Shown: positions 4,950-6,731 of the stretch, piece by piece
How the letters are laid out: each line of letters begins with the position of its first letter
Position numbering within the stretch: position 1 is the first letter of the stretch
Source of the DNA: an uncultured Leptospiraceae bacterium
Lineage (GTDB): Bacteria > Spirochaetota > UBA4802 > JAGODF01
Assembly (NCBI GenBank): GCA_964627815.1
Contig: CAZVKE010000008.1
Coordinates: 182,116 to 246,115 of the forward strand
DNA: 64,000 nucleotides
Direction of reading: 5' to 3'
Translations under genes and position numbers: made by a program
Notes under the pieces: model-generated
The model's input: the letters and a program-made list of their open reading frames with translations, nothing else
What the model was told of the DNA's origin: nothing
The model's database searches: none

Positions 4950-6731
4950 CTAAAAAATGTATACACGTTCTTCGGGGAGCTGGTGCTGGTATTCCGAAAT
5001 CATGGATATGAGCATTCTGGTGCGGTACTCCCCGTTTTTTTCGCACTCGCTCAGATACTGCCGCATCATGTCCGCGTCGCGGTCGTGTTCCCTGGCCCCG
5101 CCCTGATGCGTTTTTTGGGCTATTCGGGAAACTTTGTCAAACAGCGACTTCAGCGTGTTTTTCAGATCGGTGATGGCCTCTATCTCCCCCGACTCGTTTT
5201 CGATGAAGCCGAGCATTCTGGTACAGGTGCCTCCCACTTCCTCTGAAATGTCCTGGTAATATTTTTTCGATTCATTGAGCTTTACCGATATTTTGCGCAT
5301 TGCCTGGATGCAGTTGTTAAGGGTGCGCTCCTGAACAAGATAGTTTTCCTGATATTCGCGGATAGATGATTCCATATACTGCGCGACCATCGCGTTGGTC
5401 GAAAGTGAACGCTCGATGATTTTCTTCATCTGGGTGGGAAGGTCGCGCACGCCGGTAAGGGCGCCGGTGAGCGTCTTTTTCAGGCTCGAGTGGCGCGCCA
5501 GCTCTATCTTGGTCAGCATGTTGATGATCTCGAAGCGTTTCGCTATCTGTACGAGCTCGTTGAAGAAGATCGAAAATTTGCCGAGTACGTCCAGTATCCT
5601 GCTTGAAAGCTCGAAAAGCTCACGCTTCCCCTCGATGATTTTCTGGATATAGCTGATATACTCGTTTTTCATGTTTTCGAGCTTTTCATATACCGTATCC
5701 AGCTTCTCGCCCTCATAGTACTGTTTGCCGTCACCGTGGGTTCCGTAGAAGCGGCTGATGAACCTGTTGAGAATGTCCTTGATCCGATCGTTGCACTCCG
5801 TGTTTCCCGTAATGAGGTGTTCGATATGGTGCTCGAGCCCCTGTATCTTGCTCATGCTCATCCCGTAGAGCAGTTCGGCGATACGCCCTGCCATGCCCGG
5901 ATCGCCGCTCCTGTCGAAAAGCCGGTCGTTGCCGTTTTCTGCTTCCTCAAGCGCGAATATAACTTTTTCAAGGTCCTGCCTGACAAGGTCCTCGGTCTGG
6001 AGCCATTCCATCACGTTGGTGATCGAACTCTCCACTTCCTCTGAATAGTTCATGATTTCCGCGACGTTCGCCGACAGCCTTCCCAGGTCGGTCAGTATTT
6101 CTCCGAATACCAGGCTGCTTTTCACCTTCATCTGGGTGAGGTAGTTTTCATTGGTGATGTCGATCTTCTCCCTTATCGATGAGAATTCATCGTAGGAAGC
6201 TTCCAGGGTCTGAAGGAGGGAGATGAATTCAGTCGAGATTTTTCCGGCCTTGTCCGAAAGCACCGTCATCTCAGAGGATATCTGCGCCAGCGTTTCCCCT
6301 TCGGTCCCGGCCTTGGTGGATATCAGCATCGTGTTTACCGAATAAATGTCGATTGCCTCTATCATCGTCAGTATTTCATCCACGCTCTTGCGTATTTCCA
6401 GCGTGCGCTGGATCGACTCGGCGATACTGTTGTTGATCCGGCTGTCCCCCTGCATGATCGCGACGGCCTCATCGATGGCGCCGTTCATTTCGTCCCTGCT
6501 TGGAATCACCACATCGCCCGCAAACGACTCGGAGGCCGTTTCCGGGTTGAGCGGATAGAAATAGTTGATATAGGGAGAGATGATCGTCCGGAACTCGCCG
6601 ATCTTCCTTGAGGTCGTTAACATGAAATCGCCCAGCTCCCCGAAAAGGGAGGAAATGTTGTCCTTCAGGACGAGGAGCCTTCCTCTTTCCTCGGCGACCG
6701 TTCCGATATCTGTAACCGTGTCTGTTGACAT
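4950..6731 (-). CDS. Hypothetical 593-aa soluble coiled-coil protein (X593) with two degenerate MCP-signalling-hairpin-like segments
   Basis: Long ORF tightly packed between cheA and the STAS gene. I saw no TM segment. aa 117-168 and aa 391-436 resemble the MCP tip ([20 protein letters not shown]..GFAVVAxEVRxLA) only loosely, for example IAKRFEIINMLTKIELARHS...TGVRDLPTQ. Confidence 0.5.
   Translation of the reverse strand: MSTDTVTDIGTVAEERGRLLVLKDNISSLFGELGDFMLTTSRKIGEFRTIISPYINYFYPLNPETASESFAGDVVIPSRDEMNGAIDEAVAIMQGDSRINNSIAESIQRTLEIRKSVDEILTMIEAIDIYSVNTMLISTKAGTEGETLAQISSEMTVLSDKAGKISTEFISLLQTLEASYDEFSSIREKIDITNENYLTQMKVKSSLVFGEILTDLGRLSANVAEIMNYSEEVESSITNVMEWLQTEDLVRQDLEKVIFALEEAENGNDRLFDRSGDPGMAGRIAELLYGMSMSKIQGLEHHIEHLITGNTECNDRIKDILNRFISRFYGTHGDGKQYYEGEKLDTVYEKLENMKNEYISYIQKIIEGKRELFELSSRILDVLGKFSIFFNELVQIAKRFEIINMLTKIELARHSSLKKTLTGALTGVRDLPTQMKKIIERSLSTNAMVAQYMESSIREYQENYLVQERTLNNCIQAMRKISVKLNESKKYYQDISEEVGGTCTRMLGFIENESGEIEAITDLKNTLKSLFDKVSRIAQKTHQGGAREHDRDADMMRQYLSECEKNGEYRTRMLISMISEYQHQLPEERVYIF

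Follow-up and report, generated by a model that had tools for sequence, protein, structure and literature searches.

The gene designated X593 lies in a 64,000-nucleotide stretch of DNA (the window) from an uncultured Leptospiraceae bacterium (GenBank assembly GCA_964627815.1, contig CAZVKE010000008.1, positions 182,116 to 246,115), with a G+C content of 52.9%. It occupies positions 4950..6731 on the minus strand, on which all features of the window named below also lie, and encodes a soluble, predicted all-helical protein of 593 amino acids (aa), described here as a probable, divergent member of the superfamily of the Borrelia chemotaxis protein BB0569. An earlier sequence-only reading of the window had placed this open reading frame (ORF) inside a chemotaxis (che) operon, between cheA and a STAS gene. 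The ORF proved to be real, with an ATG start preceded by an AGAGG-type ribosome-binding site 13-17 nucleotides (nt) 5′ of it, and the gaps to cheA and to the STAS gene were 17 nt and 9 nt, respectively. It belongs to a cluster of 11 same-strand genes packed with intergenic gaps of -1 to 48 nt, in the order dCache-HAMP-MCP, dCache-HAMP-MCP, CheA, X593, STAS_2, CheY, CheW, CheD, CheR, CheD, CheB, in which MCP denotes a methyl-accepting chemotaxis protein. The two MCPs that head the operon (8906-10930 and 10956-12971) are canonical receptors, as had been claimed, each with the canonical tip, three methylation-consensus sites and a C-terminal GFVEF. CheA, directly upstream of X593 (6749..8857), comprises P1, a weak P2, P3, P4 and P5, and carries tandem MshEN-type cyclic di-GMP (c-di-GMP) motifs in the P2-P3 linker. 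Directly downstream of X593 lies the gene of an 84-aa, CheS/BB0566-like STAS_2 protein (4686..4940; PF13466, E 8e-17), followed by that of a CheY-type single-domain response regulator (4300..4671). CheC, CheX and CheZ are not encoded in the 11-gene operon.

The absence of a transmembrane (TM) helix, of HAMP and of a recognisable sensor domain, noted in the sequence-only reading, was borne out: the highest Kyte-Doolittle value of any 19-residue stretch in X593 was 1.32, against 3.1-3.3 in the two neighbouring MCPs, and Pfam found neither HAMP nor a sensor domain. The same reading had quoted two peptides as degenerate echoes of the MCP hairpin tip, and both were located in X593, at aa 117-166 and aa 391-435, inside the nucleotide ranges of what are called here segment 1 (aa 117-168, 6228..6383) and segment 2 (aa 391-436, 5424..5561). 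In the alignments, no part of the X593 family is better conserved than these two segments. As receptor-tip-like elements only the first of them stood, matching an MCP profile at 97% with its tip in register, whereas the MCP likeness of the second amounted to 0.7%.

The N-terminal half of X593 was found to be homologous to the cytoplasmic signalling hairpin of MCPs, including both of its arms (aa ~49-239, 6015..6587). Two alignments were used, A1 of close homologs of X593 and A2, a 128-sequence family profile. The latter matched 13 solved MCP structures in the PDB at E < 1e-7, the best being T. maritima Tm14 (3g6b/3g67; E 3e-16, profile positions 49-232). The Tm14 tip fragments 4jpb/3ur1 were matched at E about 1e-13 and Tm1143 (2ch7) over profile positions 85-238, with both sides equal in length; structures of Tsr, Aer and PcaY were matched as well. 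When the N-terminal hairpin was compared by hhalign with a profile of 16 local canonical MCPs (from the window, related loci, and E. coli Tar and Tap), probabilities of 96.9-97.3% were obtained (E 2e-10 to 2e-11), against 0.4% for the reversed control. Segment 1 corresponds to the hairpin tip, with a predicted turn at residue 141 and near-invariant N133, G142, G145 and I151. In the aligned stretch, DIYSVN133TMLISTK140AG142TEG145ETLAQISSE154MTVLS, N133 falls on the asparagine of LALN, K140-A-G142 on R-A-G and G145 on the second glycine, so that the trimer-contact asparagine and the R/K-A-G turn are kept; the equivalent of N133 is Tsr N381, the trimer-contact residue. On these alignments, segment 1 and the MCP hairpin tip are truly homologous. 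A comparison with PF00015 had been proposed as a check; X593 by itself gave only a weak Pfam MCPsignal match (aa 100-242), but the family profile matched MCP structures at the E value given above, in keeping with the proposal of a very divergent cytoplasmic receptor or array scaffold. As judged from sequence, X593 probably descends from an MCP and has lost the membrane, sensor, HAMP and methyl-accepting features.

The sequence-only reading had been unable to name a family for this protein. A name was reached through intermediate sequences, namely the BB0569 superfamily (NCBIfam NF052273, "BB0569 family chemotaxis protein"), which X593 alone matched at 17.2 bits (E 0.0014), aa 112-256 corresponding to positions 111-256 of the 590 in the profile. 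A word-indexed search returned 19 homologs with 38-94% identity and a length of ~590-640 aa, except for one truncated sequence; those with a name were annotated as hypothetical protein, and the closest relatives came from uncultured Spirochaetota/Leptospiraceae metagenome-assembled genomes (MAGs). A profile search over 1.84 billion representatives yielded 839 clusters at E <= 1e-3 (179 at E <= 1e-10) with almost no annotation in their names, and among the 150 matches listed nearly all were 560-640 aa long and collinear. Five intermediates (P0062, P0067, P0075, P0100 and P0120) matched both the X593 profile (1e-17 to 1e-31) and, end to end over positions 9-570, NF052273 (E 1e-34 to 1e-41). In a sample of the distant clade, 77 of 80 members matched NF052273 (best 2e-53) and 78 of 80 matched PF00015 (best 7e-11). 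Aligned by hhalign with the 87 sequences of the distant clade, the 47 sequences of the X593 clade gave 99.96% (E 3.5e-39) over 522 columns, and X593 shares about 15-20% identity and the same architecture with the NF052273-matching clade. It also presents the features that define the BB0569 type: a length of 593 aa, the conserved block at 117-168, the lack of TM, HAMP and methylation sites, full-length collinear homology, and a spirochete che context. X593 is thereby likely, as far as profile comparisons tell, to be a remote, Leptospira-like member of the BB0569 superfamily. No confident match to an unrelated characterised family was found, and CheWS (mBio 2023), which was considered as the family of X593, was excluded as a different one. 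The novelty implied by the alternative proposal, a new coiled-coil partner of CheA/CheW, was overstated. The family to which X593 belongs has a name and has in part been characterised, and X593 is a new, very divergent representative of it.

Co-occurrence with che genes, which the sequence-only reading had put forward for checking, was observed in 16 of the 17 close loci and in five of the seven distant contexts. The close loci were taken from species-representative genomes, all of them spirochete or unclassified MAGs. Twelve present the order MCP-CheA-X-STAS-CheY-CheW-CheD-CheR-CheD-CheB as far as the contig reaches, four have or begin the permuted order X-MCP-CheA-STAS-CheW-CheD-CheY-CheD-CheR-CheD-CheB, and in the remaining one the contig is cut at the X gene. 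The short STAS gene was conserved in 13 related loci, and the MshEN-type insert was kept in all 12 related CheAs that cover the P2-P3 linker. Among the distant contexts, the 3′ neighbour of X was CheD in two, CheR-CheD in one, CheY in one and a whole che operon in one, while two had no che gene; in five of the seven, a che gene or operon thus followed X directly or almost directly.

One of these distant loci (L024, positions 5001-11974) is headed by a 657-aa member, P0064, in the order X-(77-aa STAS_2-like ORF)-CheY-CheA-CheW-CheR-CheD-CheB. Its gene order comes close to that of the alpha-proteobacterial MCP-CheS-CheY1-CheA clusters. The X-STAS-CheY triad, found both there and in the window, has thus been kept between proteins with about 20% identity to each other. 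In Spirochaetaceae-like MAGs (L019-L023 and L025), the BB0569-like gene is not part of a che operon but has conserved surroundings: a MalK-like ABC ATPase is encoded directly upstream in five contexts, DUF5312 and an aminotransferase further upstream in three, and CheD or CheR-CheD is often encoded directly downstream. For L. interrogans, the literature describes a co-regulated cluster cheY-STAS-cheA-'MCP' (RS10670)-cheW3-cheD-cheB (MY479_RS10655-RS10685), which is down-regulated in a host-like chamber model.

The structure of X593 was predicted with AlphaFold2 on alignment A1 (mean predicted local distance difference test score, pLDDT, 79.8; predicted template modelling score 0.57), giving a wholly helical model of 12 helices. 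In the N-terminal half these span residues 2-58, 70-140 (with two kinks), 142-244 after the turn at 141, and 247-266, followed by a loop; in the C-terminal half they span residues 278-329, 340-413, 415-425, 431-541 after a turn at 426-430, and 546-583, and the last nine residues are disordered. The model consists of long antiparallel helical hairpins, an element whose lack the sequence-only reading had named as grounds for abandoning its interpretation, and its predicted turns coincide with segments 1 and 2. Judging by the arm lengths, the chain appears to form two long hairpins, I (aa ~2-266) and II (aa ~278-583), each about the size of one MCP cytoplasmic hairpin. In the modelled protein, hairpins I and II may pack into a four-helix bundle formed by one chain, in imitation of a receptor dimer. 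Conservation was highest at the tips in all four arms, with a modest second peak 50-69 residues above them. Arm-length covariation, which was run to test the four-helix bundle, gave weak correlations and exposed a fixed spacing between tip and motif that is taken up below.

Segment 2 is the second conserved block, at the predicted turn of the long C-terminal hairpin, whose conserved part spans aa 396-436, and is specific to the family: F400 and E410 are near-invariant, and the close clade has L431-P432 without exception. At the level of sequence comparison, any resemblance of the segment to the MCP tip cannot be told from chance, with hhalign probabilities of 0.4-0.7% for the C-terminal hairpin against MCPs and of 6% for the segment 2 tip region against segment 1. 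The whole N- and C-terminal hairpins were aligned at 78.8% (E 1.7e-5) with their two turns in register; the reversed controls reached 20-40% and the best of 20 heptad-block shuffles 34%. An ancient internal duplication, in which hairpin II would derive from hairpin I or from an MCP, is possible on this comparison, and it is not claimed because the controls reach 20-40% and the tip-only comparisons fail. Pfam scans of eight fragments of the C-terminal hairpin returned inconsistent, sub-threshold coiled-coil matches only and revealed no hidden domain. Outside both segments, a loop with the sequence PYINYFYP (aa 53-60, 6552-6575), aromatic and bounded by prolines, is specific to the X593 clade, and all 19 close homologs share P53, Y54, Y57, F58 and Y59. 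The loop is level with the N-arm methylation sites of MCPs (-86/-79 from the tip glycine), where the AlphaFold2 model breaks the helix.

The conservation of this second hairpin bears on the possibility that X593 is a cytoplasmic sensor receptor, whose C-terminal hairpin (aa ~278-583) would sense a cue or a partner, such as the STAS protein or c-di-GMP-loaded CheA, and modulate CheA via the tip. Such a role, which partly overlaps with the array component preferred here, is possible without being probable. It would be consistent with the retained MCP signalling hairpin, with a strongly conserved C-terminal half that has its own invariant motif, and with the position of X593, which is that of the soluble MCP gene in alpha-proteobacterial MCP-CheS-CheY-CheA clusters. 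Soluble MCP homologs that modulate CheA are, moreover, known in spirochetes, e.g., TDE2496 (PMC7666581). However, a ligand-binding domain is not recognisable in X593, Pfam giving no more than coiled-coil noise, and its lack of methylation sites precludes classical adaptation; BB0569, for its part, has been called an atypical MCP with no ligand named (PMC10703414, PMC5318424).

Outside the tips, the near-invariant residues of the family are Q245, D248 and Q252. They belong to a motif at a fixed height above the tip (aa 245-256, QTEDLVRQDLEK, 5964..5999), which is near-invariant in the 128 sequences. The methylation consensus [ASTG][ASTG]xx[EQ][EQ]xx[ASTG][ASTG] was found at no site of X593, under either strict or loose matching, against three sites in each neighbouring MCP, and 131 of 136 family members likewise lack it. 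The distance between G142 and D248 was exactly 106 residues in 117 of 120 members, whereas other distances between anchors varied with a standard deviation of 5-11 residues. In the operon MCPs, methylation-consensus sites were placed at -86 and +103 from the tip glycine in 14 of 14 proteins and at -79 in 13 of 14, positions that correspond to sites 2-4 of E. coli Tar, in which E491 is the residue at +103. Q245 stands exactly at +103, the position of the canonical methyl-accepting glutamate, and Q252 at +110, one heptad further on and opposite the E-E pair of the MCPs, as can be followed in the aligned windows (MCPb QQNSALVEETASASEEMANQ versus X593 ITNVMEWLQTEDLVRQDLEK). From these alignments, the most suitable reading of the Q245/D248/Q252 patch is that of an MH2 modification site which was remodelled, became fixed as glutamine and lost its small flanking residues. 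The glutamine at methylation-site height and the conserved C-terminal tail are apparently new to the literature.

A patch of this kind could make X593 a docking platform or substrate of CheD, and perhaps of CheR or CheB, in which the glutamine pair would be bound or deamidated by a CheD of the operon and the adaptation enzymes would be sequestered or positioned. This function, compatible with an array component, is conceivable, albeit unlikely. The position of Q245 at +103, as in all 14 operon MCPs and in Tar E491, with Q252 one heptad on, is in line with it, and so are the tip-to-motif spacing fixed in 117 of 120 members, the CheD or CheR-CheD genes directly downstream in three distant contexts together with the CheD within the L024 operon, and the two to three CheD paralogs per close-clade operon, all with their Cys/His motifs. 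Conversely, the A/S/T/G flanks of the modification consensus are absent, an invariant glutamine rather than a position varying between E and Q is atypical for modification sites, and two of the seven distant contexts have no che neighbour. A narrower version, in which one CheD would be a dedicated and possibly inactive partner, was rejected: the Cys and His motifs are intact in each of the two paralog groups, and the CheD encoded beside the distant-clade genes shows no specific relationship to either of them.

The same residues also allow X593 to be read as an array-resident, CheZ-like phosphatase of phosphorylated CheY, with D248 and Q252 acting as D143 and Q147 of CheZ and the tail ending in phenylalanine tethering CheY. 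Indeed, in its best local alignment hhalign sets D248 on D143 and Q252 on Q147 of E. coli CheZ, the operon lacks CheC, CheX and CheZ, and the flexible tail ends in Phe. In the distant clade, 10 of 80 members gave weak matches to the CheZ profile NF041271 (best 8e-5) and one of 80 matched PF04344; in P0100 and P0120, the two with coordinates, the CheZ match overlaps the D248 region. However, the hhalign probability was 0.2-0.3% with E. coli CheZ and with an enterobacterial CheZ alignment, itself narrow (at least 79% identity), and no CheZ structure was present among the PDB matches listed for whole-family or region-limited profiles, nor was there any CheZ match for X593 itself. With a CheZ hidden Markov model, the top score was 6.9 bits, and the reversed, shuffled and MCP controls scored 4.4-5.0; the rate of weak CheZ matches equalled that of the generic coiled-coil families SMC and MCE. 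Descent from an MCP methylation site accounts better for the motif. A Borrelia bb0569 mutant, furthermore, reportedly runs constantly, like kinase-null and not phosphatase-null mutants. With the right register and no statistical support across four tests, the phosphatase was rejected as a candidate and is regarded as improbable.

The other conserved element is the C-terminal tail of X593, EERVYIF (4953..4973), a candidate pentapeptide-like docking tail in which residues 585-593 have a pLDDT < 50. Phe is the last residue in 124 of 136 family members, and the consensus reads G-E-[VIL]-[TV]-[LF]-F-COOH. The last residues of X593, R-V-Y-I-F, depart from the CheR/CheB-binding pentapeptide, which has an aromatic at position 2 and an aromatic or Phe at position 5, in that position 2 (= -3) is aliphatic, not aromatic; the form of the tail is hydrophobic-x-x-Phe after an acidic/Gly linker, as in the operon MCPs. 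In the canonical MCPs of the window and of the L001-L016 operons, the C-terminus is invariably DDG-F-[VE]-E-F, which is a CheR/CheB tether of the pentapeptide type.

The best-studied relative of X593 is encoded in the Borrelia cluster cheW2-bb0566-cheA1-cheB2-bb0569-cheY2, in which bb0569, an atypical MCP, was the sole gene studied that was involved in chemotaxis in vitro (PMC10703414). BB0569 is localised at the cell poles and is important for motility and chemotaxis (PMC5318424), and a STAS domain has been described in BB0566 (PMC6719511). Similarly to BB0569, X593 is a soluble spirochete protein of ~590 aa with an MCP-like block near 110-170 and without TM, HAMP or methylation domains, and it is encoded with CheA, a STAS protein, CheY, CheW and CheB. 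The two differ in gene order, which is cheA-X-STAS-cheY for X593 and STAS-cheA1-cheB2-bb0569-cheY2 in Borrelia, and the X593 operon adds two canonical MCPs, CheR and two CheDs, as well as a CheA with MshEN-type motifs. X593 also differs by its clade-specific PYxxYFYP loop and by its low identity (~15-20%) to the NF052273-matching clade. The study of Borrelia burgdorferi BB0569 cited in this literature is that of Zhang et al. 2016 (J Bacteriol 198:664).

As in soluble MCPs such as Tm14, TDE2496, R. sphaeroides TlpC/TlpT and S. meliloti IcpA, whose signalling hairpin binds CheA/CheW, X593 combines the lack of TM segments with an MCP signalling hairpin. In alpha-proteobacteria, the gene order is soluble MCP, cheS, cheY1, cheA, and the local order X593-STAS-cheY is the same as that of soluble MCP-cheS-cheY1. 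As in IcpA/atu0514-type genes, X stands directly before the STAS (CheS) gene and cheY, both in the window and in L024. The alpha-proteobacterial STAS-only protein CheS binds CheA and shapes the CheA-CheY interaction (PMC12654446). Unlike X593, these soluble MCPs score above the PF00015 threshold, form homodimers of a single hairpin and have for the most part kept their methylation sites, whereas X593 has a second, family-specific hairpin of ~300 aa and a conserved C-terminal tail. With Tar/Tsr and the operon MCPs, X593 shares the N of LALN, the R/K-A-G, the second Gly and the E of GEVR in its tip, a C-arm geometry identical up to the methylation site at +103, and a C-terminal hydrophobic-x-x-Phe tail after an acidic/Gly linker; it differs from them in having no signal/TM segment, dCache, HAMP or methylation sites, and in the loss of the equivalents of E385, R394 and G395. 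Like CheZ (PF04344), it is built as a long helical hairpin or bundle, carries a helix with a D-x-x-x-Q pair and has a flexible C-terminal peptide whose last residue is Phe; homology to CheZ is not statistically supported, and the motif corresponds in position to an MCP methylation site instead.

By analogy with Borrelia, X593 is most plausibly regarded as a divergent BB0569-type component of the chemoreceptor array. We infer that its MCP-like tip would insert X593 among canonical receptors at the CheA/CheW baseplate, where it would act as a non-adapting component, that is, a scaffold, an assembly factor or a constitutive 'receptor' aiding array formation. X593 would be co-transcribed with CheA, the CheS/BB0566-like STAS protein and CheY, and may couple this cognate CheA-STAS-CheY module to the array. 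Such a part, structural or coupling, is the one reported for Borrelia BB0569. The Q245-x-x-D248-x-x-x-Q252 patch would most likely constitute a fixed docking or recognition surface, the candidates being CheD, CheR, CheB or the methylation helices of neighbouring receptors, while the C-terminal tail could be a docking site for adaptation enzymes or neighbouring receptors. A more speculative extension, and a rather doubtful one, is that BB0569-family proteins are single-chain mimics of a receptor dimer, with the MCP tip of one hairpin for CheA/CheW and a family-specific tip on the other for a different partner, e.g., the STAS protein or CheY, in which the Gln-Asp-Gln patch would be a switch or docking site operating by CheD deamidation or binding or, less likely, by CheZ-like dephosphorylation of CheY. 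If this were true, spirochete arrays would gain a non-methylated, enzyme-recruiting structural subunit.

Several points weigh against reading X593 as an MCP-derived BB0569-type array component. First, the matches of the single sequence are weak: against PF00015 it scored 13.2 bits (E 0.084, aa 100-242), below the gathering threshold of 34.6 bits, and it stayed below the 1000-bit equivalog cut-off of NF052273. This cut-off presumably admits only close relatives of BB0569 itself, because the best matches of the distant clade (E down to 2e-53) also fall short of it. Second, the membership of X593 is supported by transitive profile evidence, through the NF052273-matching clade. Third, Foldseek of the AlphaFold2 model against the PDB gave no match at E <= 1e-3 and generic long coiled coils only, and conservation at matching heights across the four arms was weakly correlated (r <= 0.37). 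Fourth, the Gln patch lacks the small flanking residues usual at CheR, CheB and CheD sites, and its fixed spacing from the tip could be mere indel intolerance of a coiled-coil hairpin. Finally, the pathway output of the X593 operon is uncertain because the rest of the Borrelia cheA1 cluster is dispensable for chemotaxis in vitro (PMC10703414).

The Foldseek result and the sub-threshold single-sequence matches are also what would be seen if X593 were a generic structural coiled coil or a decaying MCP relic with no role in chemotaxis, its tip being noise. Conservation over the full length in 839 clusters with near-invariant residues, MCP matches at E 3e-16 with the tip in register against a reversed control of 0.4%, and an operon conserved in 16 of 17 loci effectively refute this explanation, which is left with hardly any likelihood.

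BB0569 is among the least understood essential parts of spirochete chemotaxis, and chemotaxis is needed for infection by Borrelia and its relatives. With X593 and about 840 clusters united in one collinear superfamily, the BB0569 type would be no Borrelia oddity and would instead represent an ancient module, present across the spirochetes and linked to CheA, a STAS protein and CheY. A gene annotated as 'hypothetical protein' in Leptospira-like genomes would become a testable model of how a non-methylatable relative of receptors organises or tunes arrays, and BB0569-like atypical chemoreceptor is proposed as the annotation name for X593-type genes. The residues and surfaces to be probed are N133, K140-A-G142 and G145 in the tip, the Q245/D248/Q252 patch, F400, E410 and L431-P432 at the second turn, and the tail ending in Phe. 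The anatomy of the superfamily, with its methylation-site Gln, second conserved turn, C-terminal tail, and X-STAS-CheY and CheD links, is apparently unmentioned in the limited literature reviewed.

The remainder of the operon encodes CheW (3761-4288), CheD1 (3143-3733), CheR (2298-3137), CheD2 (1741-2298) and CheB (641-1741), with gaps of -1 to 27 nt. Two CheD paralogs in the window, and three in L007 and L016, are unusual for a che operon without CheC/CheX. One type is canonical (GSC...NHFMLPG) and the other divergent (SSC...GHFIIPG), with a partial Pfam match only, and both keep the Cys and His motifs. In CheA, aa 254-306 (7940-8098) contain the two tandem MshEN-type c-di-GMP-binding motifs, KIGEILLHKGILSENELAEAIQAQ and KLGDIVVEKGFATPGDINNALNEQ (NF053729, E 1.5e-15). 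MshEN was absent from the text of one survey of CheA architectures that was searched, and the P2-P3 linker of Borrelia CheA1 has been reported as unusually long (73 aa). Upstream of the che operon, beyond a gap of 198 nt, a 989-aa REC-5xPAS-HisKA_3-HATPase hybrid kinase and a 231-aa REC-LuxR/GerE response regulator are encoded (13170-16848), and this pair may regulate the operon.

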